From Paraspadella gotoi (lineage: Eukaryota; Animalia; Chaetognatha): a stretch of DNA of 64,000 nt. The stretch is taken from NCBI GenBank assembly GCA_051294375.1, contig CM119265.1, forward strand, positions 11,031,918 through 11,095,917, in the 5' to 3' direction. Position 1 is the stretch's first letter; every line of letters starts with the position of its first letter. This document shows positions 974 to 62,110 of the stretch, piece by piece. The notes under the pieces were generated by a model that searched no databases, was not told the DNA's origin, and saw nothing but the letters and a program-made list of their open reading frames with translations. The translations under genes and the position numbers were made by a program.

Positions 974-1159
974 TGAAGGGACAGTAATAATGGTTATGAG
1001 TTAGTGACAGAACCATTCAATATAAGCAGTCCCTGAGCTTCGGATAAGGCTGTAACACCATGTTACAGGCGGGTTAAGCGCTCCGTCCCTCTTAACTGAT
1101 AGGCGACCACCGGGCTAAAACCCCAGACCTTTGGGATGGCAGGCGAATGACTTGCCTCC
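974..1159 (-). mobile_element. 5'-truncated, diverged LTR of the same family (duplicate copy at 5696-5882)
   Basis: The reverse complement aligns to the LTR from the tRNA-like D-arm region through the twister-like domain to the terminal ...TGTCCCTTCA. Confidence 0.85.
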
Positions 1160-4100: not shown

Positions 4101-5896
4101 AAATTAATAGTATGGGGAGAGGGGGGAACAGAACAATTGAGAGAAAGAAAAAGATAAGAAACAGGGAGAAAGGAGAAATCAGCAGAGGGAGAGAAAAGAC
4201 ATCTGAGAGGAAGGGAAAATAAGGTTAGGAAGAAAAGAAGGGATGACCAGAAAAAAATATGAGGACAGAAAAGTATGAGAAAGGGAGAGAAAGACGAGAG
4301 AAAGAGAGAAAAAGAGACGAGACAGAGAGAAAGGTTCAAATAGGAGAAAAAAATAGGTGGAAAAAAAAAAGAAAAAAAGTTTTAAAATTAACGGCCGTTG
4401 TTTTGGCCTAAGAGTAAGTATCTCTAAAAAAGCGCGATAGGTCTGACCAGAGCAATTTATCTTTAAAAGTTTCCCCGCTTAGCAATGAACAATCGTTTTA
4501 GTTTCACTAATTATGGCAGATCCGTAATGAGAATGGATGTCAGTAAAAAAAATAATGCTTCTTACCGTATTTTGAAAGGAATAGAAGATTTCACCCAGTG
4601 AGTTCGATGTGTTAGTAAGGAGAAAATAACTATGCCAACCAGTTTTTTAGATAAAGAGTGTTTTCATATTTATCAGTAGAAAAAAAGAAATAATAGTATT
4701 AGTTCAATTTCATTGTTGAAAATATCGCGCAAATCAAAATCACTGCAGTACGCCGTAAGAAAAACTATCGAAACGACGCAAAACGTTCGCCTGCGAAAAA
4801 AAAAACAAAAAAAACGAGGTTGAAAGAGAAAAAGGCAATATTAATTTTAATCTTTTTAACGAACCGTGGCTCGTCGCATAATTATTTTTTTAAATTTTTT
4901 TCTGAAAAGAAAACAGAGCAAACAAATAATTGCGGGAATGGTCTTTGTCAACAATAAACGAGAACAAAAAAGAGGAAGATAAAAGGGAAAATAAAAGAAG
5001 AGATCGGGAGACAAAGTCAAGCAACTCCGTCCACATGAGACGGCAACTCAATCACGGGACTTCGGGAAGCGAGCAGGTCCCCGTTCTCGCGCTGAAGGCA
5101 GACAAAGTCTCTCAAAAAAGTGCTTAGACGTTTTGCCGATATCTAAGCCTGCATTCGTTGCTTGGAGTTTGGCGAAATCTTTTAAGTTTGAGAAAGCATC
5201 CAGGTCCCATGCCCGAAGGTAGTAACAACCAGAGGGATGAAGCCAACATCGGCCGGCAGTTTGCCTTCATACTAAGCATGTTTGGCCTGGCGAGCTCGTT
5301 CCAGGGCATATGTGGGGTTGAGGATGGTATGACCAAAACAGTCCTGGCGAAGGGGAGTGGCAGTTGCTGTGTCGTCAGTCGTCCAGGTGGAAGGGATTCC
5401 TTGACAGACGATGGGCTTCATCTGAACCAAGGAAACCCCGTCCAACTCAATCGTGCTTGATTCTGGAACGCCCTCTTTGGGATCCTGTATAGAAGATTAG
5501 AGAATTGATCGTGAACTTTGCTAAAAAAAAAGGACGAAAAGAGAAGTCCTAATCGAACACCGCTTCATCTCCCAGAGAAAAAGAAAGAGAGAAAAAGAAG
5601 TATTGTAGGTCAAAGTTAGTAATGATTTGCTGAAAAATAAGTTAGAATGAGGTTTATGACCATTCAATGAAAAGAGGATTAAACTACTTCTCTTTTGAAG
5701 GGACAGTAATAATGGTTATGAGTTAGTGACAGAACCATTCAATATAAGGCAGTCCCTGAGCTTCGGATAAGGCTGTAACAACCATGTTACAGGCGGGTTA
5801 AGCGCTCCGTCCCTCTTAACTGATAGGCGACACCGGGCTAAAACCCCAGACCTTTGGGATGGCAGGCGAATGACTTGCCTCCTCTAACAGTATCAG

Positions 5897-15064: not shown

Positions 15065-17626
15065 CTAAGTTGTAGTTCATTCGAGAATAGCGATGTGTCG
15101 CCGGCGTATTCAACGCACGAGTCTGCAGCATGTCGGTCTCTTAGATTGGTTGGCGAGTTCGCCCATGCGATGTCGCCAGGGCTTTGGCGCATGTCGCCAG
15201 TCCCCTCCACTGGCGACTCGCCTAGAGTGATAAAAAGTACGCAAATTAATGAGAAACGCAGCGAACTCGAGGGTATATGAGCATCACCTTCAGGCTCCTT
15301 TTCCCAACCCTAACCCTAAACAAACCTCCCGTTCAACTCTGTGCCTTCTCCCTAACCCCACCGCTGCCTGGGCTCGCTCTCGTAGCTATCTCTGCATGCT
15401 CTCAACCCTTAACCCTAACCGCCTTTGATGCTCAACCACGGGCCCCTCCCCCAACTGTAACCCCTAAACCAATGTCGTTCCCATTCAACTCTGTCTGCTC
15501 TCTCCCCATAAACCTAAACCCAGGCTCAGCCTCCCCGTAGACATCTCCGTGCCTCAACCTCTAGACCCTTAACTCGCCTTTCGATGCATCTAACACGGGC
15601 CCCTCCCGCCAACCCTAACCCTAAAGCTATAGCCTTCCCGTTTCAACCTTCATGCTTCTTCCTAACTAACTCAGGCCCAGCTCCCGTACATTCTCCGTGG
15701 CCTCAACCCTAACCCTAACCGCCTTGATGCATCAACCATGGTCCCTCGCGGCAACCATAACCTAAACAAGCTCCCGTTCTCAAGATCATGCCTCTTCCCA
15801 TAACCCTTAACAGGCCCGGACTCCTCTTACATCTTCCGTACCTCAACCCTAACTCTAATGCCTCTCGATATATAACCCACGGCATCTCTCCCAAACCCTT
15901 AACCCCTAATACGGGCCAGCCTCCGTACATCTCCGCTACCTCACACCCTAACCCTAATTGCCCTCACTTCTCGACATATAACCCAGGGCCTCGTCTCCGC
16001 AACCCCATAACCTAGACCGGGCCCAGCCCCTCCTCGTACATCTCTGTCCTCAAACCCTAACCCTCAACCGGGCCCTCTGGTCATCAGACAGACACCCTCC
16101 CTACCCCTATCCCTAAAGATTGACATTAATAATAAGCCTTAAAATAAACATTAATTAACTCAACCCTTAACCCTAAATATCTCAACCCTTAACCCTAAAC
16201 TACTCAACCCTAACCTAAAACTACTCAACCCTACCCTAACTCTACCTAGCTCAACGCTAACCCTAAACTCAACTCACCCTAAGCCCTGAAATTGAGTTTA
16301 TTTGAGGCGAAATCCGCGATAACTAGAACGTAGATGTATCAGTTCAGCAAGTAGCGAAATCGCTCAAATCGGACTTAGCCATTGAACGCCCTCCCATTTG
16401 GCGTTTAGCTGTGAATTACATCATAGCGCGTGTTCATCCGGCGATGTTCGCCTAAATATAAGACTCAATATAGGGTTAGAGTTGTGAGCTGGTTTAGGGT
16501 TAGGGTTGGAGTTAAAGTTAGTAGTATTCAGGGTTAATGTGAGTTGAGTGAGTTTAGTTAGGCGTTGAGTTAGTTGGGTAGGGTTAAGGGTTAGGGTTGA
16601 GTTAAGTAAGTTATTTTCTTAGGCTTAATTATATTATGTCAATTTTAGGGATAAGGGGTAGGGAGGTGTTGGTTATGACCAAGAGGCCCGCGGTTAGGGT
16701 TAAGGGTTGAGGCCACGGAGATTACGGGAGGCTGGGCGCCGCGGTTTAGGGGTTAGTTGGGGAGAGAGGCCCGTGTGTGTTACTATATCGAAGGCAATTA
16801 GGGTTAGGGTCTGAGGTACGAAGATTGTACGGGAGGCGCCTGGGCACCAGTTTAGGGATTGGGTTGAGAAGAGGCCCGTGGGTTTATATATCGAAGGCAG
16901 ATGTAGGGTTAGGGTTTGAGGTACGGGAGATGTACTGGGACGGCCGGGCCTGGTTTTAGGGTAGGGGGAGAGGCATGGAGTTGAACGGTGAGGCTTGGTT
17001 TAGGGGTTAGGAGTTGCGCGAGGAGACCATGGTTGATGCATCAAAGGCGGTTAGGGTTACGGGTTGAGGCACGAGATGGTACGGGAGGCTGGCTCTGATG
17101 TTAGTGAGTTGGGGAGAGGCATGGAGTTGAAACGGGAGGCTTAGTTAGGGTTAGGGTTGGGGGAGTGGGCCCGTGGTTGATGCAATCGACAGGCTGGTCT
17201 AGGGTTAGGTGAGAGCAACCGGAGATGTATATGGGAGGCTGAGCCTGGGTTAGGGTTAGGGGAGAGGCACCGAGTTTGAATGAAGGCTTAGGTTTAGGTT
17301 AGGTTTGGAGGGCAGGGGCCCGTGGTTGATGCATCAGAAGACAGTTAGGGTTAGGGTTGAGGCATGGAAGTGTACCGGAGAGGCCAGGCGCGGGTTAAGG
17401 GTTAGGAGAGGCACGAGGTTGCAACGGCGAGGTTTGGTTTAGGTTAGGGTTGGAAAGGAGCCTGTAGGTGATGCTCATCCCCGTGTTAGCTGCGCTTTTC
17501 ATGTCATATTTCGCATTATCTCTGATTTTATTCATGCGTTAGTGTCGCCGGAAGTGGGGGAGCTGCGGACATTCGCCAAGGATGGCGACATGCGCCAATG
17601 GAAGGTCGCCAACCAACTAGAACTAG
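15065..17626. mobile_element. Foldback-type element: ~1.2-kb inverted arms built of ~120-bp units rich in CCCTAA (left) / TTAGGG (right)
   Basis: The arms are reverse complements (e.g. 15280-15304 vs 17452-17477). Termini are CTAAGTTGTAGTT / AACTAGAACTAG. The flanks rejoin into a repeat seen uninterrupted at ~56660-56710. Confidence 0.7.
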
Positions 17627-21321: not shown

Positions 21322-22777
21322 TCACGCGTTGGTGGGTGATTTTTCCCTGACTCTCGAACCGGCGGCGCCGGCGGAGGCGGCGCGTGATTCCGCGGCGTCA
21401 AGGAACATCGAAGGGATCTTCTCTCCGAAGAAGATCTTATTGTTGGAGGCGATGGCCTCGAGGCGTTTGAGTTCGAGATACTCTGCCGTCAGCAGGAGTT
21501 TGTTCGACTCCGCCTGCTTCTCGATGGCGTAGAAGTCGGCATCGGCGCGCGCGCGCATGCGTGCTGAAAGGATAAGAGAGATGAAAAGTGAAGACAAGAT
21601 TTGAAAAAATTATTTAATTAAAAAAAATAGACTGCCTCAAGAATATAAAAAAAATGTACACTGCTTCGAACTTGTTTCCGACTTGATTGAGTTAGAATTT
21701 TAACATAGCAGTCTTTTTTTCTTCCCACCTTCACCAAACACGTCCATCACGAAAAGACTTACCCAAGTGAGTCTCGTCCTCGATGAGCGACATCTTCTGC
21801 ATAGATTCTTTTTCGACGATCTTTGCGTCGTATTGAATTCGATTCACTTGCGCCGCCTTCTCCGCCTCGATCACCGCCTTCTTCCGCTCCGTCTCCGCCT
21901 CCTTCTCCACCACCTTGTCAAGTTAAGATTCAAGGGCGTTTGTCAACCGATTGTTTAAAATACAAACAACCCCCTCCGTCTCACTTTCTGCTTTTGTTGT
22001 GCGATCAAAAGCTTCGACTTCTCCGCCTCCATAAGTTCGAAGTTTTTCCTAATGGACTCGGGGATTTTTGGTTTGGTGACGCGAACCGCTTGCACTTGGA
22101 GACCCGGCGCCATTTTCGTCAGGTCTTCTTGCAGAGCCTGCTTCAAATTTTCGTCGATTTTGTCGAATAAATCGATGTAGACTTCTTGCAAACTATCGAG
22201 GAAAAGGGAGAAAAATAATGTTCCTTTTATTAGAAATCTACTATGTAATTAAATTCAATAGGGGCGGGGGTTCAATTAATGCTTTTATTTTTGCATTCAA
22301 AATTACATTATTACTATATATTATGAAATTGGTACAACCAATATAAAAATTATCCATTCATTTAATAAATAAGCTATTTGCCCCTTACTTTGGACAGGCT
22401 TTGGTGGTTTAAGGCCTCCATCACTCTTACAAGATAATGACATAGCAGGTCCCTGCAAGCTTTCAATCAGACTCTCTCACAGTCTCGTTTATTCACTCCC
22501 AGAGTACCAGGCATAATATTTCAAAGAATGTTTTAATAGTTGATGATATAATGATAAAAAAAAATTTTTAATCAATCTTAACTTTTTTTGATGGATTCTG
22601 ATAGAGCACAAAAAGTTAAATGAACAAGTTTGAGCAAACAATGTCGATCTGCCCACGATAATTAAGCGGTAATCAGCTCAATAAATAAAAAATAAATAAA
22701 TAAATACTGTCGTAGAAATAATTACAAATAAAATAAAAATAATTTTCTTCAACTATTATTATTATTATTTTTTCAAC

Positions 22778-22835
<58 letters not shown>

Positions 22836-25800
22836 TTTTCAACTATTATTATTATTATTATTATTATTTTTTCAACTATTATTATTATTATTATTATTAT
22901 TTTTTTTTCAACTATTATTATTATTATTATTTTTTAAACTATTATTATTATTATTATTATTATTTTTTAAACTATTATTATTATTATTATTTTTTTTTTT
23001 TCAACTTGCATCTTTTTTACAACTTGCATCTTTTCAACTTGCATCTTTTTTCAACTTGCATCATTCTTTCAACTTGCATCATTCTTCACCTGCATCATTC
23101 TTTCAACTTGCATCATTCTTTCAACTTGCATCATTCTTTCAACTTGCATCATTCTTTCAACTTGCATCATTCTTTCAACTTGCATCATTCTTTCAACTTG
23201 CATCATTCTTTCAACTTGCCATCATTCTTATCAACTTGCATCATTCTTTTCAACTTGCATCATTCTTTTCAACTTGCATCATTCTTTCAACTTGCATCAT
23301 TCTTTCAACTTGCATCATTCTTTCAACTTGCATCATTCTTTCACGCATCATTTTCATGCATCATTCTTTCAACTTGCATCATTCTTTCAACTTGCATCAT
23401 TCTTTCAACTTGCATCATTCTTTCAACTTGCATCATTCTTTCAACTTGCATCATTCTTTCAACTTGCATCATTCTTTCAACTTGCATCATTCTTTCAACT
23501 TGCATCATTCTTTCAACTTGCATCATTCTTTCAACTTGCATCATTCTTTCAACTTGCATCATTCTTCAAACTTGCATCATTCTTTCAACTTGCATCATTC
23601 TTTCAACTTGCATCATTTCATTGCCTCATCTCAACTTGCATCATTCTTTCAACTTGCATCATTCTTTCAACTTGCATCATTCTTTCAACTTGCATCATTC
23701 TTTCAACTTGCATCATTCTTTCAACTTGCAACAAGCTTTAACTTGCATCATTTTTTCAATATGCATAATTTTTTTATCTTACTTATTAATTAATTAAAAC
23801 ATTCATGAGTAGGCATAAATAATTAAAATTTAAGTCACTTAACTTTGGTTTTTTCCATGCAAACTCATCACGATTCCGACGAAACTTTATATCCTGCTCA
23901 ATCATACTTTTATGGTGGACTAAAATCCACCAACCGTTCATCAGCGGCCATTGGTGCCGGAGGCAAGTCATTCGCCTCCCAACCCAAAGGTCCGGGGTTC
24001 TAGCCCGGTGGTCGTCTGGTCAGTTAAGAGGGACGGGGCGCTTAACCCGCCTGTAACATGGTGCTTACAGCCTGATCCGAAGCTCAGGGACTGCTTACAT
24101 TGAAAGGCTCCACGTACGATCGATGTCCTTTTAGACAACGAAATCTAAACTTTGATAATTACCATCTTTCTTGATCTCATTAGTTAGTATGAAACTTACT
24201 TCATTTAAAAAAACGGTAGTCTCAAGTTATCTCCTTCTTATCACTTAGAACTTCCCAGGTAAATTTCTATGAGTTAAAAACACGGTAAGACATGATTTCT
24301 TCAATGATTGTTTATCTAATCTCATTAACTGCGTAGTTTTAGATATAAGTATGTTCGAATTTTTATGGTATACGATAATTTTTAAAAGAGTCGAATTCCT
24401 CATAAGAATCTTCACGTCTTTTACTTACATAACAGATTTTAGGTAAGACGCCACATTATCTGATACAATTTTTTTTCTTCATAATGCTTTCCCTGATTCT
24501 TTTTCTTCACTTCTTTTCTTCTCTTTCTTTATAATTTCCTCTTCCTCCTTTCCTCCCTTACTGCTCAATCTGTCACTTACCATTTTTCGGCCCCTACCTT
24601 TTTCTGCCACTCATGCACTTTCCTTACCTTTTTTCTCTCCTTCTCTCTTTCCCTTTCTTTCCCCTCTTTTTCTTTCCAATTTTCCCCTCATTTCCTACCT
24701 TTTATTTGTCTCACTATTTTTCCCCCCATTTGTCTATTTTTTTTGCCTTTGGCCCCCTCTTTCATTTTCTTACCTTCTCCTTTTCTTGTTTTCTCTTTCC
24801 TCTCCCTCTCACAACGTTTACATGAGCCATATCAAAGAAAATCTTTAATATTCATTATAAGAAAGGATATTAACGGTAATGGAGGTTTTTAATTCAATTT
24901 TGTTGCCTAGCAAATTAGTAAATCGACAGATTTTGCGGAAAATTTTCCGCAAATCTGTCGATTCTGAGAAAAAACAAGTCCTGAGGCTTTCCATTGGGTT
25001 AAAGGATGCGGTTTTTTTTGTTTTATCAACGTCAGTAAGTACCCCATCTTTTAAAACTAATAAATGAGTTGAAAATATTTTCTTTATCATAAATAAATGC
25101 AAGTCACAAAAGTCACAAATTAAAAGTTGTCTTTAAAAATTATTTGTGGCTAAACGAATAGAGTTTTTTTGATAATTTTGTAGGTGTTAAAAGCTTATTC
25201 TGTGGACTATATTTTCTGTTAGTTTAAGCCAATTTAAAACTATTTTTGTTTAATAAATTATAATAAAAACTAAAACTGCGACTTTTTGACTTGTCAACTT
25301 TAAAATTAATTCATAAGTGAACAATGAATGATATAAGGAAAATATTTTACTCAGGGTGAAGAAGATGAGGAAGAAAGGAATTCCAAAATAAAAAAAATTT
25401 CTCAACTTTCCTTTGGCATTCAAATTTGAAGACGAAAGTGAAAATGGACAAAAATGGACATGATTTTTTTTCCTAAAGTTGCAAAAATGTTACTCTTATA
25501 TGATTAGAAATAGCTGGAGATGGTTTTTAACCATCCGTATTTTGGCCTAATTTATATTATGGTGCAAATTAAATTAATTTTGTTAATAGTAACTGAACAA
25601 TACTGAAAAAAGTAGTTTTTTCTCTGAATGCGAGGATCGTAAGCAGAGGCTGAACGGTTCTGTCATTAACACTTATCAATAATTACTGTCTCTTCATTGG
25701 TGAGCCCGACTTCGAACACAACAGCAACAACACTTTCAGGCGACATGCCTCAACCTGGCGATGCACTTCCGCCATCAACACATCAGGCGACATGCCTCAA

Positions 25801-28800
25801 CTTGGTGATGCACTTTCCACCAACAACAACAATACACTGAAGAGACGCAACAGACTTCTCCCTACGGGAGGGGGGGATGTATGGTGGACTAAAATCCACC
25901 AACCGTTCATCAGCGGCCATTGGTGCCGGAGGCAAGTCATTCGCCTCCCAACCCAAAGGTCCGGGTTCTAGCCCGGTGGTCGTCTGGCAGTTAAGAGGGA
26001 CGGGGCGCTTAAACCCGCCTGTAACATGGTGTTACAGCCTGATCCGAAGCTCAGGGACTGCTTACATTGAACGGTTCTGTCATTAACACTTATCAATAAT
26101 TACTGTCTCTTCACTTTCTTTCCACACACAAAATTTCATCCCATTCTATCCTTCCAATTATGAATAAAATCGATTAATGATGGATTAAATTAATAAATAG
26201 ATTCAAATAAAGTGACTTATGTTTTTTCCATTTCAACTCATTTCCACTTGTACGATTCCATCTAAATTTTATATCCAGCTTTATCACACACTTTCCTACT
26301 CCGACACAAAATTTAATCTCAATCTATCTATCCAATTATGAGTAATATGAGTTAAGATTAGTAAAAAGATTTAAGCTATTGTGACTTATGTTTTTTCCAT
26401 ATAAACTTATTTCCACTCGCACGATTCCATTGAAACTTTATATCCAGCTCAATCACACACTTTCCTACCCACACACAAAATTTTATAACAATCCAACCAT
26501 CCAATCACGAGTAATTGGAGTTTTTTTTGCTAAGGGGGGACGGATGGACGGACTTTTTTTGGCTTAATTTATGATAATATGATGTTCTGATGTGATAAAA
26601 TGATTTACCGACAAGATTTAGGGTGAATTATAGACTCGGAATCTGCTGATAAGCAGATCCGACTAAAAATATAACTAAAACTTTCAAAAAAGTATCAGGA
26701 TCTCGCCAGACGTTACTATCAAAAATCGAAAAAAAAGAATGATTGATGCGATAACAAATTATTGATTTAATAAAAATTGATTGATGAAATAGTAATTAAT
26801 TGATTGATTGATGTAATAGTAATTGATTGATAGATATAATAGTAATTGATTGATAGATGTAATAGTAATTGATTAATTAAACATAATTGTAATTGATTAA
26901 TATAATTAATAATGATTGATGATGTAATAGTAATTGTTTGATATAATAGTAATTGATTGATTGATATAATAGTAATTGATTGATTGATGCGATGATAACC
27001 AAAGGATTGATGCGATTATAACCAAATGATTGATGTATGGTGGACTAAAATCCACCAACCGTTCATCAGCGGCCATTGGTGCCGGAGGCAAGTCATTCGC
27101 CTCCCAACCAAAGGTCCGGGGTTCTAGCCCGGTGGTCGTCTGGCAGTTAAGAGGGACGGGGCGCTTAAACCCGCCTGTAACATGGTGTTACAGCCTGATC
27201 CGAAGCTCAGGGACTGCTTATGTTGAGCGGTTCTGTCACTAACTCATAACAATAATTACTGTCTCTTCATTGTGAGCCCGACTTCCGAACACAACAGCAA
27301 CAACAACACTTTCAGGCGACATGCCTCAACCTGGCGATGCACTTTCCGCCACAACACATCAGGCGACATGCCTCAACTTGGTGACGCACTTTCCACCAAC
27401 AACAACAATACACTGAAGAGACGCAACAGACTTCTCCCTACGGGAGGGGGATGTATGGTGGACTAAATCCACCAACCGTTCATCAGCGGCCATTGGTGCG
27501 GAGGCAAGTCATTCGCCTCCCAACCCAAAGGTCCGGGGTTCTAGCCCGGTGGTCGTCTGGCAGTTAAGAGGACGGGGCGCTAACCCGCCTGTAACATGGT
27601 GTTACAGCCTGATCCGAAGCTCAGGGACTGCTTATGTTGAGCGGTTCTGTCACTAACTCATAACAATAATTACTGTCTCTTCAGATGCAATGATAACCAA
27701 AGGATTGATGCAATGATAACCAAATGATGGATGCGATGATAACCAAATGATGGATGCGATGATAACCAAATGATGGATGCGATGATAACCAAATGATGGA
27801 TATGATAATTGGGACCAACTCTGAGATAATTAAAATTTCGACTATTAGCAAAGTATCTTTAGTTGTCTTAACTAAATATTTAAGCAATCATTTTCAAAAA
27901 AATTTACATTATACGTCTTGATTAATACATTAAAAATTACATGTCTTTCTAAATTATAAAATTTTTTTTTGAAATCTTCAAAATTTTTTTATGGATTCTG
28001 ATAGAGCATAAAAAGTTTAACAAGAAATATAATTACAGCTTTTTAAAAATTCTTACATTTTCTATGTGAAAATATAAAAAAACTGATAAATCATTGAAAG
28101 AGATGATGATTTTTTACGGTTTTTCTTATTTTTGACTTGCTTATCATAAAAATATTTAAAACAAGTTTGAGCAAACAATGTCGGATCTGCCTACGATAAT
28201 TAATTAATTAATCGATTAATTAATTAATTAATAAATTTTAATATGTAATAATTAATTTTAAATTTATATTCAACTATCATCATCGATGTCCATAAAAATT
28301 GGGTTAGGACAGTTATTAAATATGTTTTTGTTTACATTTTATCCTCTATTTTATTTTATGTCTCCTTCTCTCTCTCTCTCTCACTCTCTCTCTTTTTATG
28401 CAATTGCGACGATTTTTAAATTTTTTAACTTGCATCATTTTTCACATTAATTAATTAATTAATTAAACATTTATTAGTAATCATTAATATTAAAGATTCA
28501 AGTAAAATGTGACATATGTTTTTCCATCTAAACTCATTTCCACTGGCACAATTCCCTCAAAACTTTGAAACTTTTGAAATTATGCGAGTTGATTTAATTA
28601 TGCAAATTGATTAAATTATGAAAGTTTACCAAATATGAAAGTTTACCAAATTATGAAAGTTTACCAAATTATTAAAGTTTACCAAATTATAAAAGTTTAG
28701 CCAATTATGAAGGTTAACCAAATTAAGCAAGTTAACTAAATTATAAAAAATTACCAAATTATGAAAGTTTACCAAATTATAAAGTTTACCAAATTTAAAA

Positions 28801-31355: not shown

Positions 31356-34300
31356 ATTTCAATTTCTTTTCACAAACTATCTCTGTCCTCACTTTCACCT
31401 GTCCCTAATATAAAACTGAACACTATCCTTTCTCTCAAACTCTGTGTTGGAAACTTTGCTCTCTCTCTCTCTTGCTCTCTTCTTTATGCACAAAATTCTC
31501 TTCAAATTCACAAATTGAATTGGCGCTGAAGAAGACTCGTATGTGAGTCGAAACATGTCGTTCACTATGAAATAAAAATCGTTGTTAAATCTCTCTTCAA
31601 AACTTTGTTCTAAATCAAATCACAACGAAACAGAAAGGAAAAAACACAATGTTTNNNNNNNNNNNNNNNNNNNNNNNNNTCATTCTTTCAACTTGCATCA
31701 TTCTTTCAACTTGCAACAAGCTTTAACTTGCATTATTTTTTCAATATGCATAATTTTTTTATCTTACTTATTAATTAATTAAAACATTCATGAGTAGGCA
31801 TAAATAATTAAAATTTAAGTCAACTTAACTTTGGTTTTTTCCATGCAAACTCATCACGATTCCGACGAAACTTTATATCCTGCTCAATCATACTTTCTTT
31901 CCCACACACAAAATTTCATCCCATTCTATCCTTCCAATTATGAATAAATCGATTAATTATGGATTAAAATTAATAAATAGATTCAAATAAAAGTGACTTA
32001 TGTTTTTTCCATTTCAACTCACTTCCACTTGTACGATTCCATCTAAATTTTATATCCAGCTTTATCACACACTTTCCTACTCCGACACAAAATTTAATCT
32101 CAATCTATCTATCCAATTATGAGTAATTATGAGTTAAGATTAGTAAAAAGATTTAAGCTATTGTGACTTATGTTTTTTCCATATAAACTTATTTCCACTC
32201 GCACGATTCCATTGAAACTTTATATCCAGCTCAATCACACACTTTCCTACCCACACACAAAATTTTATAACAATCCAACCATCCAATCACGAGTAATTGG
32301 AGTTTTTTTTGCTAAGGGGGGACGGATGGACGGACTTTTTTTTTGGCTTAATTTATGATAATATGATGTTCTGATGTGATAAAAATGATTTACCGACAAG
32401 ATTTAGGGGTGAATTATAGACTCGGAATCTGCTGATAAGCAGATCCGACTAAAAATATAACTAAAACTTTCAAAAAAGTATAAGGATCTCGCCAGACGTT
32501 ACTATCAAAAATCCGAAAAAAAAAGAATGATTGATGCGATAACAAATTATTGATGTAATAAAAATTGATTGATGAAATAGTAATTGATTGATTGATGTAA
32601 TAGTAATTGATTGATAGATATAATAGTAATTGATTGATAGATGTAATAGTAATTGATTAATTAACATAATTGTAATTGATTAATATAATAATAATTGATT
32701 GATTGATGTAATAGTAATTGTTTGATGTAATAGTAATTGATTGATTGATATAATAGTAATTGATTGATTGATGCGATGATAACCAAAGGATTGATGCGAT
32801 GATAACCAAATGATTGATGCAATGATAACCAAAGGATTGATGCAATGATAACCAAATGACGGATGCGATGATAACCAAATGACGGATGCGATGATAACCA
32901 AATGATGGATGTGATGATAACCAAATGATGGATATGATAATTGGGACCAACTCCTGAGATAATATAAAATTTCGACTATTAGCAAAGTATCTTTAGTTGT
33001 CTTAACTAAATATTTAAGCAATCATTTTCAAAAAATTAATACATTAAAAATTACTTGTCTTTTTTAAATTATAAAATTTTATTTTTGAAATCTCAAAATT
33101 TTTTTATGGATTCTGATAGAGCATAAAAAGTTTAACAAGAAATATAATTACAGCTTTTAAAAATTCTTACATTTTCTATGTGAAAATATAAAAAAACTGA
33201 TAAAATCATTGAAAGATGATGATGATTTTTTACGGTTTTTCTTATTTTTGACTTGCTTATCATAAAAATATTTAAACAAGTTTGAGCAAACGATAATTAA
33301 TTAATTAATCGATTAATTAATTAATTAAGAATTAAGTCGATTGAATTAATGTATGTGAAGTAGAATTTTAAGTATGTAATAGTTAATTTTAAATGTTTAA
33401 TATTAGCTATTCGATCATCGATGTCCATAAAATTGGTTAAGGACAGTTTATTAAATATGTTTTGTTTACATTTTAATCCTCTATTTTATTTTATGTCTCC
33501 TTCTCTCTCTCTCTCTCACTCTCTCTCTTTTTATGAAATTGGCGACGATTTTTAAATTTTTAACTTTGCATCATTTTTTCAACATTAATTAATTAATTAA
33601 AAAACATTTATTAGTAATCATTAATATTAAAGATTCAGAGTAAATGTGACTATTTTTTTTCCATCTAAACTCATTTCCACTGCGCACAGGATGTCGCGTT
33701 CAAAGAACTTTAATATAGATTTTATATATTATGAAATATTTAGAAAGCTTGTAAGTGAACAACCCAATGACTAATACCAAAAAGTTACATTGAATAGTCG
33801 ATTTGGTAGTAAAGGGAAAAAAAGAAATTATTTAAGAGAGACTAGAAGTTGTTAAAAACGTGTTCAAGTTTTGGCCCGGCCTTACTAGATAATCTAGCGG
33901 ACCGGACAGGTTGAAAACTAGAAAGTTCGTCGCTCAATAAATGAATGGGTGGAAGTAGCGAGGCTATAAATATATAAAATGAAAACAATTTAAGTAGCTA
34001 TTGAGATATGTGCTTAAATTTCTTACATTTTTTTCATAAGATTCTAGATTAGAGGCTTTAAAAGGTTAGATAAAGGTTATTATATAATATAATATATATT
34101 ATATAACTTTTTAAAATTTTGTAGGTTTTATTAAATGAAAAATTTTAAAAAAAATAGAAATTCAGGACCAATAATGATGGATGATGTATTTTAGAGGAGT
34201 TTTTTCTATATTTTTAAGCGCAATTTATTGTCAAAATTTGAAACTTTTTTAAGCTCTACAAGAACCCGTTCTTAAAAAAAAACAATTTTTTCAAATTTTT

Positions 34301-42400: not shown

Positions 42401-43158
42401 GATGAGGGATAGATAAGTTAAAGATAAGTGAAATAGTAAGGTAAGAAAAGAGAAAAAGAAAGTAAGAAAAAATGTCTAAATTTTCGTTTGAGCAGGTGTT
42501 AATTCAAATTTCTTAACCACCTTACTGAGTTAGATAACCCCTACTTTTATCATTATATTAAAATCTCATGAAAATAAATTTCACCAACTCATACTCAACC
42601 TGTTAAACTGTTGATGAGATAGAGAAACTCCACCTAATTTTAAAAGAACCAAAAGTTACTCTGCGACACCTGTGCTGGGAGCAGAACTGATTGAGTTCGT
42701 GATGAATCTTGTTGAAGATGAGGACTTTATCGTAGTCAGGGCTGTAGCTCTTGACGATCTCATGGACGACGTCCATTCGGAGGATGTTGACGACCTCGAC
42801 GCGATCGAAGAAGATCATGACGCCGCCGGAGGTGCCGCACGGAACGTTCTTCACCTCGTCCGTCTGCAGCGTCGTCTGCATCGATCGGTAGGTAGTGATG
42901 AAGGGGATCATGAGGTGGTAGCCTGGGGGGTTGGTATGGGAGGGGGGGCGAAGAAGAAAGGGAGGAGTCGACTCTCGATTTGTATTTCGAATAATTAAAA
43001 ATATTTTTCTCTTCACCAGGAGATGTGATGGAACTGAGAAGGGCGCCGCCGCGAAAGTAGACGCCCACATGACCCTCTTCGATCTTGTGGATGGAAAAGT
43101 TAAAGAGGATGGCGACCGCAGCGACGGCGACAATGATGACTGAGGCCGGGGCCGCCAT
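21322..43158 (-). CDS. ERLIN: Erlin (ER lipid raft-associated, SPFH/band-7 family), 5 exons: 43158-43017, 42922-42670, 22192-21985, 21913-21763, 21563-21322; 996 nt, 331 aa
   Basis: The spliced translation [41 protein letters not shown]...[12 protein letters not shown]...[23 protein letters not shown]...[33 protein letters not shown]...[23 protein letters not shown]...[25 protein letters not shown] matches the erlin-1/2 family as I recall it. All four introns are GT-AG with compatible phases, and the exon lengths sum to 996. Confidence 0.96.
23001..23730. repeat. 18-bp minisatellite (TCAACTTGCATCATTCTT)n, ~40 copies, preceded by (TAT)n at ~22752-22990
   Basis: Read directly from the sequence. 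It explains the periodic ORFs at 23006-23797. Confidence 0.95.
23911..26113 (+). mobile_element. Second copy of the same miniature LTR element; 5' LTR (23911-24104 plus 25655-25696) interrupted by a 1.5-kb insertion; 3' LTR 25880-26113
   Basis: TSD CTTT (23907-10 and 26114-17), PBS TGGTGAGCCCGAC at 25698, PPT at ~25866-25876. The empty site atcataCTTTctttccc is at ~31888-31903. Confidence 0.9.
24105..25650. mobile_element. Non-autonomous DNA element nested in the 5' LTR; diverged relative in opposite orientation at ~3150-4760
   Basis: TGAA is duplicated on both sides. It has imperfect ~16-bp TIRs (ggctccacgtacgatc / gatcgtaagcagaggc), an internal palindrome at 24921-24963 and a CT-rich core; similar features occur at ~3860-3910 and 4020-4380. 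Confidence 0.65.
27070..27138 (+). promoter_or_regulatory. tRNA-Gly-derived head with Pol III A/B boxes inside the LTR (in every LTR copy; 5'-truncated in the solo copies)
   Basis: Acceptor-like stem CGGCCAT/GTGGTCG, A-box-like TGGTGCCGGAGG, anticodon-loop-like TCGCCTCCCA (TCGCCTGCCA in the 1-kb copy; Gly CCC/GCC), and T-arm CCGGG-GTTCTAG-CCCGG (B box). Confidence 0.7.
27142..27218 (+). ncRNA. Predicted twister ribozyme, circularly permuted type P5 (5' LTR); equivalents at 27559-27632, 25986-26062, 24018-24095 and, on the minus strand, ~1025-1098 and ~5747-5822
   Basis: Element order: P5 GGCAGUU, AA, P2' GAGG, GA, T1' CGGG, GCGC, U^AA, P2 CCC, GC, P3 CUGUAAC/GUUACAG, P4 CCUGA/UCAGG with loop UCCGAAGC, P5' GACUGCU. 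The loop matches the twister L4 pattern (4-nt T1, AA, GC for T2). The CGGA variant in the 1-kb copy keeps T1 pairing. Confidence 0.75.
30230..30271 (-). ncRNA. Minimal type I hammerhead ribozyme motif (duplicate 39270-39311; degenerate inverted partner 30454-30495 on +)
   Basis: GACG-CUGAAGA-AGGCUU.GUAAA.AAGCC-GAAAC-AU-GUA-CGUU, with palindromic ACAUGU as stem III. Confidence 0.75.
30863..30904 (-). ncRNA. Minimal type I hammerhead ribozyme motif (duplicate 40870-40911)
   Basis: GGCG-CUGAAGA-AGACUC.GUAUGU.GAGUC-GAAAC-AU-GUC-CGUU. Confidence 0.78.
31522..31562 (+). ncRNA. Minimal type I hammerhead motif, inverted partner of 30863-30904 (duplicate 41335-41376)
   Basis: GGCG-CUGAAGA-AGACUC..GAGUC-GAAAC-AU-GUC-GUU, followed by AATAAA. 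Confidence 0.72.
37837..41622. mobile_element. Relative of the AACCGTT hAT-like MITE, with nested Penelope-like and hAT insertions (left-end duplicate at 29552)
   Basis: CAGAG...CTCTA ends, 8-bp TSD GTTACACA, and AACCGTT subterminal repeats at both ends. Confidence 0.75.
38209..38949. mobile_element. hAT-like non-autonomous insertion (related end at ~11737)
   Basis: TAGG...CCTA(C) ends with 8-bp TSD GCCTTAAT. The empty site is at ~29911 in the duplicate. Confidence 0.8.
42022..42068 (-). ncRNA. Minimal type I hammerhead motif in a ~490-bp Penelope-like insertion (~41981-42470)
   Basis: UUUG-CUGAUGA-AGACU..AGUC-GAAAAC-AU-GUA-CAAA. The insertion interrupts sequence that is contiguous at ~6410-6430. 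Confidence 0.7.
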
Positions 43159-43188
43159 GGTGATTGATGGAGGTAAAGGCAACGAACG

Positions 43189-43270
<82 letters not shown>

Positions 43271-43451
43271 TATAATATTTCGCGCGCGTGGGCGCGTTTT
43301 AAGTCCAATTCTTTGAGTTACTCAGTATTTTTTCTAAAGAGCATGATAAAGATTTGTAGACTAGAGAGATCCAACTAAAAACCAAACTAAAACGAGTCTA
43401 TAACTAATAACTGGGTTTTGAGTTTCAACAACGATCTGTCATTTCGTCATC

Positions 43452-59360: not shown

Positions 59361-60488
59361 CTATAATGTATTTCTCGATGTATTAGCTCTAATACATCAA
59401 TGATTATGCATTGTTATGGTGAATGACCTTTCCTCTTAAGAGATTTGGCATTAATTTTTATACATAACATTCACGGATGAGAAACAATAAAAAATGAAAA
59501 AATCAATGATTTTTTTTTAAAACTGCATATTCTACGAGACTGTACATTAGGGTGGAGTGATAAAAAGATTGAGGGATGGAACAATGTTTTTTTGCTGCCT
59601 TTGTATATGTAATAAAAAATAATTAAGCCCTTTTTCAAAAAAAATTTGAATAACAGTATCATTAATTATAGTAATATCCTTATAAAATCATAAAATTTCA
59701 AAATCATATTTTTTTAATTCTAAGAACAATTTCGGATTCGCCGGAAAAAACTGAAAAACTTTTGTAAAATATGTTATATATTTTTAGGTTAAAGCTTCGA
59801 AAAATGACCAAAACGTCTCATCATATAATGGTTTCTACTACAAATCGTAAAAAAGTGGAGAATTTAAATTTTTTTTCCATTTTTGACGCTGAAGACATTG
59901 AAATTTTTAATAACATATTTAATATTTTTGATCTAACTTTTTATGAAGAATAAGAATCTTTAATAAAAATTTAAAAAAAAATATTTTAAAAATTTTTGAT
60001 TTTATAAGGATATTACTATAAATATATTGTAATTAATGATACTGTTCCCCAAACAATATAAGCAAAATATTTTTTGTACTCCTTAATCATACTATCTCAC
60101 ATCTAAATATCCTTGTTTGTTCACTCAAATAAAATTCATGTTGCCCAGTGCTCCACTCTACTGTACATCGCAAGTAAAAGATAAATATAGCCAACCGTTT
60201 TTATAACTGAAGAATATCCTATATTTATCAGCGAGATGAAAATAAATGACAATTATTCCACTTTCAAAATCATTGTCTAAAATATCCGAAGCGGGAGTAG
60301 AGCCTTGAGAAAAAAATGATTACAGAAAGCTTCATATTATAAAATGAGGTACCCCTTTTTTGTGACCAGAATCTGTTCCCACCAAACTACCGTATCAAAT
60401 TTTATGAAATTTTACACAGAAAGTCCTAATGATAATATAAATGGAATTTTTAATTCCTTTATGGAATATTAATTCTATATCGGTTGTT

Positions 60489-62110
60489 GTGTACTCGGTA
60501 GGAGGGTAACGGAAGTGGTAGGATTTTTCCGTGGTCGGATGTGAAACTGATGGTCTGTGTACTCGGTAGGAAGGGTAACTGAGATGGTAGAATTTTTCCG
60601 TGGTCGGATGTGAAACTGATGGTCTGTGTACTCGGTAGGAAGGGTAACGGAGATGGTAGGAATTTTCCGTGTCGGATGTGAAACTGATGGTCTGTTGTAC
60701 TCGGTAGGGAAGGGTAAGGGAGATGGTAGGGAATTTTTCCGTGGTCGGATGTGAAACTGATGGTCTGTGTACTCGGTAGGAAGGTAACGGAGATGGTAGG
60801 AATTTCCGTGGTCGGATGTGAAACTGATGGTCTGTGTCTCGGTAGGAAGGGTAACGGAGATGGTAGGAATTTTTCCCGTGGTCGATTGAAACTGATGGTC
60901 GTTGTACTCGGTAGGAGGGTACGGAGATGGTAGGATTTTTCGTGTCGGATTGTGAAACTGATGGTCTGTGTACTCGGTAGGAGGGTAACGGAGTGTAGGA
61001 ATTTTTCCGTGGTCGGATGTGAAATGATGGTCCTGTGACTCGGTAGGCAGGGTAACGGAGGATGGTAGGAATTTTCCGTGGTCGGATGTGAAACTGATGG
61101 TCTGTGTACTCGTAGGAAGGGTAACGGAGATGGTTGGAATTTTTCCGTGGTCGGATGTGAAACTGATGGCTGTGTACTCGGTAGGAAGGGTAACGGAGAT
61201 GGTAGGAATTTTTCCGTGGTCGGATGTGAAACTGATGGTCTGTGTACTCTGGTAGGAAGGGTAACGAGATGTAGGAATTTTTCCGTGGTCGGATGTGAAA
61301 CTGATTGGTCTGTGTACTCGGTAGGAAGGTAACGGAGATGTAGGAATTTTTCCGTGGTCCGGATGTGAAACTGATGGTCTGTGTACTCGGTAGGAAGGGT
61401 AACGAGATGGTAGGAATTTTTTTCCGTGGTCGGGATGTTGAAACTGATGGTCTGTGTTACTCGGTAGGAAGGGTAACGGAGATGGTAGGAATTTTCCGTG
61501 TTCGATGTGAAACTGATGTCTGTGTACTCCGGTAGGAAGGGTAACGGAGATGGTAGGAATTTTCCGTGGTCGGATGTGAAACTGATGGTCTGTGTACTCG
61601 GTAGGAAGGGTAACGGAGATGGTAGGAATTTTTCCGTGGTCGATGTGAACTGATGTCTGTGTACTCGGTAGGAAGGGTAACGGAGATGGTAGGAATTTTT
61701 CCGTGGTCGGATGTGAAACTGATGGTCTGTGTACTCGGTAGGAAGGGTAACTGGAGATGGTAGGAATTTTTCCGTGGTCGGATGTGAAACTGATGGTCTG
61801 TGTACTCGGTAGGAAGGGTAACGGAGATGGTAGGAATTTTTCCGTGTCGGATGTGAAACTGATGGTCTGTGTACTCGGTAGGAAGGGTAACGGAGATGGT
61901 AGGAATTTTTCCGTGGTCGGATGTGAAACTGATGGTCTGTGTACTCGGTAGCGAGGGTAACGGAGATGGTAGGAATTTTTCCGTGGGTCGGATGTGAAAC
62001 TGATGGTCTGTGTACTGCGTAGGAAGGGTAACGGAGATGGTAGGGAATTTTTCCGTGGTCGGATGTGAAACTGATGGTCTGTGTACTCGGTAGGAAGGGT
62101 AACGGAGATG
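60489..62110. repeat. 70-bp tandem repeat, ~23 copies
   Basis: Unit GGTCGGATGTGAAACTGATGGTCTGTGTACTCGGTAGGAAGGGTAACGGAGATGGTAGGAATTTTTCCGT, with no spacers. Confidence 0.95.

Follow-up and report, generated by a model that had tools for sequence, protein, structure and literature searches.

In each LTR of a short non-coding element we observed a tRNA-like head followed by a type-P5 twister-like motif, and we conclude that this element is most likely a Pol III-driven animal LTR retrozyme. The element, referred to as element A, covers 648 bp (27036-27683) of the window, by which we mean the whole 64-kb stretch of DNA analysed, and the window sequence gives it two LTRs, a PBS and a PPT. Element A belongs to a many-copy family in an animal, with many insertion sites. 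It joins two separately described kinds of element, TRIMp3 and retrozymes, and the twister-like motif is the new part.

Structure and insertion of element A

The boundaries and internal signals of element A are as follows.

27032-27035, plus strand: left TSD GATG, repeated at 27684-27687 and single at the empty site
27036-27269, plus strand: 5' LTR, 234 bp, termini TA...CA, from LTR alignment; contigs of sequencing runs end at both termini
27270-27282, plus strand: PBS of tRNA-Trp type, one G missing as assembled; copy B (below) and many run contigs have that G
27301-27404, plus strand: non-coding 47-bp tandem repeat, 2.2 copies, in the internal region
27442-27453, plus strand: PPT ending in ATG, from sequence inspection
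27454-27683, plus strand: 3' LTR, 230 bp, containing a head (27486-27556), a twister-like motif (27560-27631) and a predicted cut (27581/27582)
27684-27687, plus strand: right TSD GATG, matching the left TSD
32816-32819, plus strand: empty site of element A in a paralogous repeat, with a single GATG

The initial annotation had claimed two LTRs of about 230 bp and a 4-bp TSD. Both were recovered, the LTRs at 234 and 230 bp with 0 substitutions between them and the TSD as GATG on both sides, backed by the empty-site paralogue at 32816-32819. The alignment of the 5' and 3' LTRs has six gap columns, all in base runs. Since substitutions are absent and the gaps are confined to base runs, the data fit a recent insertion, with noise from a long-read assembly. 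Element A has no protein-coding gene. The stop-to-stop frames of at least 70 aa at 27030-27239, 27227-27463 and 27417-27653 gave no Pfam match, nor did a minus-strand frame at 26909-27187 that lies partly over the 5' LTR; the earlier call of no ORF agrees with the frames scanned across the element, and the PPT named with it is present at 27442-27453.

A PBS one mismatch away from the tRNA-Trp complement had also been proposed, and this holds when the G present in copy B and many run contigs is counted. With this G restored, the PBS matches at 12 of 13 positions the complement of A. mellifera tRNA-Trp (Fig S2, PMC10886601; this and the other papers are cited from the portions available) as well as the tRNA-Trp-type PBS of Gypsy-32_NVi and Helenus-2_SyJa. 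On the minus strand, at ~2834, an identical PBS lies behind an unrelated LTR; it shares the "mismatched" base, and the PPT of that family ends almost identically. Because this base recurs in an unrelated LTR family in the window, it may match the host's own tRNA.

A second non-coding LTR-type element was observed at 2918-1434 on the minus strand (duplicate at ~8213-6745), with a truncated 5' LTR and a 3' LTR of ~270 bp ending in CA. It has a Trp-type PBS, the PPT end and a 10-nt LTR motif in common with element A, and the two elements possibly depend on the same gypsy partner. In the internal region of element A, 27415-27424 is the reverse complement of the LTR 3' end (27258-27269), and a helix between the two, spanning the PBS, is predicted for the unit RNA.

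Copies in the window and in sequencing runs

Further copies lie elsewhere in the window.

23911-26113, plus strand: second full copy (B), TSD CTTT, 3' LTR at 25880-26113, empty site at 31893-31896
974-1159, minus strand: 5'-truncated LTR copy C, ~90% identical, with a P1 hexamer variant that has an A-U outer pair and with one P4 mismatch
5696-5882, minus strand: 5'-truncated LTR copy D, ~90% identical, a segmental duplicate of C with the same P4 mismatch

In copy B, ~1.55 kb of inserted sequence (24104-25650) divides the 5' LTR; this insert is flanked by a 4-bp duplication and is without obvious terminal repeats.

A search of public sequencing runs listed 13 runs, none of them on record as RNA. 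Nine of the 13, from one organism and three studies, contain 36-71% of the element's words. Contigs that end exactly at 27036 and 27269 and continue into unrelated flanks were observed in three runs of that organism; in run X5, at least 128 contigs break at 27036 and at least 127 at 27269, and run X2 has 12,592 contigs on one LTR. LTR depth in the run contigs is several-fold above internal depth, which fits solo LTRs, depth being no copy number. Runs X10 (two contigs), X11 (one), X12 and X13 (none) are uninformative on distribution.

Over 27036-27269, variants in X2 and X5 are mostly C>T or G>A, many of them at CpG, which suggests methylation decay. Rare head-to-tail LTR-LTR joints occur over the same interval (7 contigs in X2, 2 in X5); in run contigs, a circle and two LTRs look alike. 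Run X9 was rejected as evidence of expression, its RNA status being a guess and flank junctions being present as in the DNA runs. Contig joints ending at 27168 were considered as cleavage footprints and are taken to be alignment breaks at the A run. A metagenome locus (L001), the sole return of a single scan, shows no similarity to the element by BLAST and resembles a prokaryotic gene region; it was taken as a chance match.

No RT or integrase was found in the 73 of 100 high-complexity frames scanned within the 64-kb window. An erlin / Band 7 gene is present in two minus-strand pieces (42603-43295 and 21958-22248) that lie ~20 kb apart. Named animal erlins among the top matches share 75-81% identity with the erlin exon, which places the host among animals, and the closest database proteins to the two pieces (93-95%) come from short environmental contigs. 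A 69-bp satellite and telomere-like repeats were located at 60488-62110 (23 copies) and 16850-17453 (degenerate, 146-bp units), respectively.

A tRNA-like head in the LTR

27069-27139, plus strand: tRNA-like head, fold z -2.9
27069-75/27133-39, plus strand: acceptor stem
27077-27088, plus strand: A-box-like sequence
27116-27132, plus strand: T arm
27120-27130, plus strand: B-box-like sequence

The head had been annotated as a tRNA cloverleaf, of which a part stood. Its acceptor stem has 7 bp, its T arm is perfect, and it contains a box-B core as well as a box A with one or two departures; the D and anticodon arms are non-canonical, and neither ARAGORN nor Rfam called a tRNA in it. In run contigs, common variants at 27136 and 27139 convert both acceptor-stem G-U pairs to G-C, and the common variant 27083 C>A brings back the box-A adenine. 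The tRNA-Gly identity given to the head is putative.

A type-P5 twister-like motif behind the head

27143-27217, plus strand: type-P5 twister-like motif, from parse, descriptor and a weak CM match
27143-47/27213-17, plus strand: P5
27151-54/27170-72, plus strand: P2
27155, plus strand: general-base G
27157-59, plus strand: T1'
27160-65, plus strand: palindromic P1 hexamer
27166/27167, plus strand: predicted cut
27173-74 with 27205-06, plus strand: T2
27175-82/27186-93, plus strand: P3
27194-98/27207-11, plus strand: P4
27199-27206, plus strand: L4

All twister elements had been claimed to be present in permuted order, and we found every part, with U^A at 27166/7 and 27581/2. All six LTR copies parse in type-P5 order, with A+1, A+2, the general-base G, T1, T2 and the L4 consensus. 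The A run at the predicted cut has two A instead of three in 58-72% of contig depth in four runs. The T1/L4 variant of the element was also found in Rfam-confirmed phage twisters.

The motif was searched for with a descriptor that, in its final version, requires the catalytic residues, both pseudoknots, P4 and three P2 pairs, with P3 and P5 not used. It matched 5 of the 6 LTR copies and 27 of 32 Rfam-confirmed phage type-P5 controls, and it gave 0 and 3 matches in two 50-Mb sets of Markov nulls; copy A3 fails it because one G is absent from a run. This final version is looser than two earlier ones and was written with the element already in view; the null was rerun on it. The two stricter versions had matched 1 of 6 copies, as their P2 requirement was too rigid and the run of three A was not handled correctly. 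The phage control loci were fetched by pattern; an Rfam twister is present in 18 of 20 loci of the first set and in 16 of 20 of the second, where 15 were called as Twister-P5, 14 of them at the gathering score. Phage type-P5 twisters with a 3-nt P2 strand were seen at L094 (57-111) and in L097, the latter as three copies within 860 bases.

The Rfam covariance-model check that the initial annotation had proposed came out negative, which corresponds to one half of the first refuting condition set there, the other half being a lack of cleavage. Rfam returned no twister or tRNA match in 26500-28300, the whole window, one LTR or a half-motif, with the twister searches run at E up to 10 in three cases and at the gathering score in the fourth. 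A covariance model of one T1 class (R1) gave no match on the element, and one of phage twisters alone (R2) gave 13-14 bits (E 0.09-0.13) on the LTR motifs; both models disregard pseudoknots and expect a long P1. R2 ranks four LTR motifs top in the 64-kb window and aligned copy B5 in the predicted register.

Departures from known twisters and competing folds

With regard to completeness, both pseudoknots and the catalytic residues are indeed in place, but P1 is only a 6-nt linker and P2 has 3 bp with a bulge, both of which had been overlooked. The 6-nt P1 linker compares with 14-26 nt in 60 controls (64 parsed), which were picked by models favouring a long P1. The bulged base in P2 is an A, and a 3-nt P2 strand occurs in 2 of the 60 controls. 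G-C closure of P4 in 60 of 60 controls was forced by the search patterns and was disregarded. Natural twisters of type P1, of which 1,948 were scored in assays, tolerate defects in P1, P2 and P4 but not in the pseudoknots and catalytic bases (PMC11662667). By analogy, the defects of the motif, in P1 and P2, would fall in tolerant parts, the tolerance data being for type P1 only.

We also assessed the predicted folding of the motif. The open fold, with catalytic and pseudoknot bases free, lies 6.6-7.8 kcal/mol above the minimum, compared to a control median of 3.2, and a gap of 6.6 kcal/mol is reached by 3 of 46 controls. Because the blocking fold lies below the open fold by more than in 43 of 46 controls, cleavage is likely to be slow under this model.

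Among the 40 variants listed, of 63 in run X2, the frequent ones within the motif at 27183 (52%) and 27182 (12%) lie in or beside loop L3. The variant 27142 G>A (52% in X2) changes a G-U pair to A-U beside P5 and strengthens P5; 27202 G>A breaks T1 and reaches 13% in X2 and 2-4% in three other runs. Copies C and D retain the P1 palindrome. With respect to the helices, the common substitutions mostly respect them, and the numbers are too small for covariation; no diverged homologue was found that could show any. The 5' part of the LTR beside the motif is as uniform among copies as the motif itself, so conservation alone is no sign of selection. That no T run follows the head is, taken by itself, not significant (P 0.53). 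By eye, P3 of the motif resembles P3 of the S. mansoni Perere-3 twisters (PMC8501958 Table 1).

Predicted unit RNA and a double-twister option

27167-27581, plus strand: putative unit-length RNA of 415 nt in the present assembly, its two ends joined by P5 according to the fold prediction

Cuts at 27166/7 and 27581/2 with ~415-nt spacing had been put forward, and the motif parse places both, giving a 415-nt unit. In the unit RNA, P5 pairs are predicted with p ~0.68, and the circular fold has a z of -3.8 against 60 shuffles. The predicted fold of the whole transcript forms P5 locally in the 3' LTR and lacks it in the 5' LTR.

Both variants of the P1 hexamer can pair with themselves (-8.3 kcal/mol). 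When two copies were modelled with catalytic and pseudoknot bases held free, they formed a double twister with a shared 6-bp P1 that is 12 kcal/mol better than the monomers; the blocked state gains 11 kcal/mol on dimerisation, through P3. These modelled energies point weakly to a double-twister option via the palindromic P1, in parallel to dimeric hammerheads.

Comparison with known elements

Helenus/TRIMp3 elements resemble element A in being short and non-coding, with two LTRs, a tRNA-like LTR sequence, a PBS, a PPT and a 4-bp TSD in animals (PMC10886601). Their PBS is of gypsy type, with the Trp type in Helenus-2_SyJa and -2_SyUm, and LTRs of some wasp families start with TA. Unlike element A, they have no ribozyme reported in the available portion of that paper, where most LTRs examined end soon after the head; in the same portion, "twister" occurs zero times and "ribozyme" solely in a reference. 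Helenus is held to be polyphyletic there, and its transcription by Pol III is proposed, not shown. A motif search of the Helenus consensus file, in which line breaks can hide motifs, found no twister loop motifs, and a motif search without alignment gave no relevant match for six 8-9-nt motifs of the element. The combination of LTR, tRNA promoter and twister had been presented as new. Because Helenus/TRIMp3 already unites LTR and tRNA promoter, only the ribozyme is left as the new component.

In Helenus-2_SyJa-LTR and Helenus-2_SyUm-LTR of Synergus gall wasps, we recognised by eye a complete type III hammerhead directly behind the head (supplement of PMC10886601, available portion), whose loops I and II are complementary over ~12 nt and which the author left unannotated. 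Most other wasp Helenus LTRs examined in that material have a T run at the hammerhead position. Like element A, the two Synergus families have a tRNA head followed by an apparent ribozyme in the LTR, a Trp PBS and no T run behind the head; unlike it, their apparent ribozyme is a type III hammerhead and their internal part is longer, with T runs. We regard both as candidate insect LTR retrozymes.

Plant LTR retrozymes share with element A a ribozyme in each LTR, a non-coding centre, a PBS and PPT of Ty3/gypsy type, a 4-bp TSD, solo LTRs and a unit RNA without an R repeat (PMC4918200). They differ in their type III hammerhead, tRNA-Met PBS, units of ~600-1000 nt and lack of a tRNA-derived head, and their circles are shown, whereas those of element A are predicted only. 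Rfam found no hammerhead in the element, which departs in this from the original definition of LTR retrozymes. The type-P5 twister (RF02684) and the motif agree in part order, catalytic G and A, both pseudoknots and L4; the motif differs in its palindromic 6-nt P1, bulged 3-bp P2, A-U closing P4, long P3 and closed P5.

Among elements of other kinds, schistosome SINE-like repeats combine a Pol III promoter with a hammerhead, but are non-LTR and without PBS or PPT (PMC6765202). The RTE element Perere-3 has a twister with a similar P3, but it too is non-LTR and lacks PBS and PPT, and its twister is of type P1 and lies at the 5' end (PMC8501958). Dimeric hammerheads of Penelope-like elements and amphibian retrozymes also have a helix shrunk to a short palindrome and two ribozymes per transcript (PMC6765202; PMC7229834). 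The helix in question there is stem III, not P1, and dimer cleavage is shown there and modelled here. In open full text of PubMed Central and bioRxiv (subscription papers and Repbase lying outside), we found no LTR-element twister, Helenus ribozyme or animal LTR retrozyme, and no natural twister needing a partner via a palindromic P1; the original twister paper (PMC3867598) or the supplement of PMC11662667, likewise outside, may list eukaryotic P5-type or LTR-borne twisters.

Discussion

Our preferred interpretation, to which we assign a probability just short of even, is that of a Helenus/TRIMp3-type miniature LTR element with a permuted twister, whose unit of ~415-420 nt would be circularised and copied by a Ty3/gypsy partner. 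This retrozyme reading is the best single mechanism, and in it we infer cleavage, Pol III transcription and circularisation alike. Pol III would read through from the tRNA-like head across the element, and the predicted twisters would cut the transcript in both LTRs to give a unit of ~415-420 nt. P5 pairing would hold the ends of this unit together, and an RtcB-type enzyme could ligate it into a circle; in vitro, animal retrozyme RNA that a ribozyme has cut is circularised by RtcB (PMC7229834). The Ty3/gypsy partner would then copy the circle with tRNA-Trp as primer, as modelled for plant retrozymes (PMC4918200).

The motif might instead be a slow, active twister that mainly cuts 3' ends and replaces the oligo-T terminator of other Helenus elements, a scenario that we find quite improbable. 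The template would then be a linear RNA that starts at the 5' head and stops at the 3' cut; its R repeat would measure ~98 nt, copying would proceed by ordinary LTR strand transfer, and circles would be by-products or absent. The motif indeed occupies the position of the T-rich run in most wasp and many bivalve Helenus LTRs examined in the available material, the competing fold predicts partial cleavage, and P5 is predicted to form locally in the 3' LTR and not in the 5' LTR. However, the motifs of both LTRs are transcribed in identical local surroundings, the fold predicted for the unit cut at both sites brings its ends together, and plant LTR retrozymes of the same layout make circles (PMC4918200). 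It is somewhat unlikely, in our estimate, that the motif is an inactive remnant of a captured twister, whose donor might be a LINE or SINE of RTE type, and rides as a passenger in the LTR of a Helenus-type TRIM. Such decay would agree with the missing Rfam match, the degenerate P1 and P2, the blocking fold, the T1-breaking 27202 G>A at 13% in one run and the likeness of P3 to an RTE-clade twister; the adjoining LTR part is equally uniform, so that selection is not evident from conservation alone. Against this, the sensitive elements are all intact and damage is limited to tolerant ones, a permuted order is not obtainable by simple capture of a type-P1 ribozyme, and another ribozyme class, seen by eye, occupies the same place in wasp Helenus. 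Chance likeness to a twister in a structured LTR is very improbable: the covariance-model scores are non-significant and the descriptor was loosened after the element had been seen, but even the loosened descriptor yields 0 and 3 matches per 50 Mb of null sequence, and P3 and P5, which lie outside it, are present as well.

A broader extension of the retrozyme reading, unlikely as it stands, holds that animals have Pol III-driven LTR retrozymes and that tRNA-headed TRIMs acquired different ribozymes at one and the same LTR position in separate events, a twister here and a hammerhead in Synergus, to produce circular RNA templates, the twister acting as a double ribozyme via its palindromic P1. 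As part of this joint reading, only two-LTR transcripts would be cut and the finished circle would be spared.

If the motif cleaves, LTR retrozymes would no longer be confined to plants and hammerheads but would include animals and twisters. A genomic twister would thereby gain a concrete job, and TRIMp3 and retrozymes would be linked. Judging by the apparent hammerhead in wasp Helenus, one ribozyme class can probably stand in for another, and repeat libraries probably contain further families of this sort that have gone unnoticed because they escape the Rfam models. Circular RNA can be expressed with an engineered twister-plus-RtcB system, and a natural twister that requires a partner would be the counterpart of this engineered expression.
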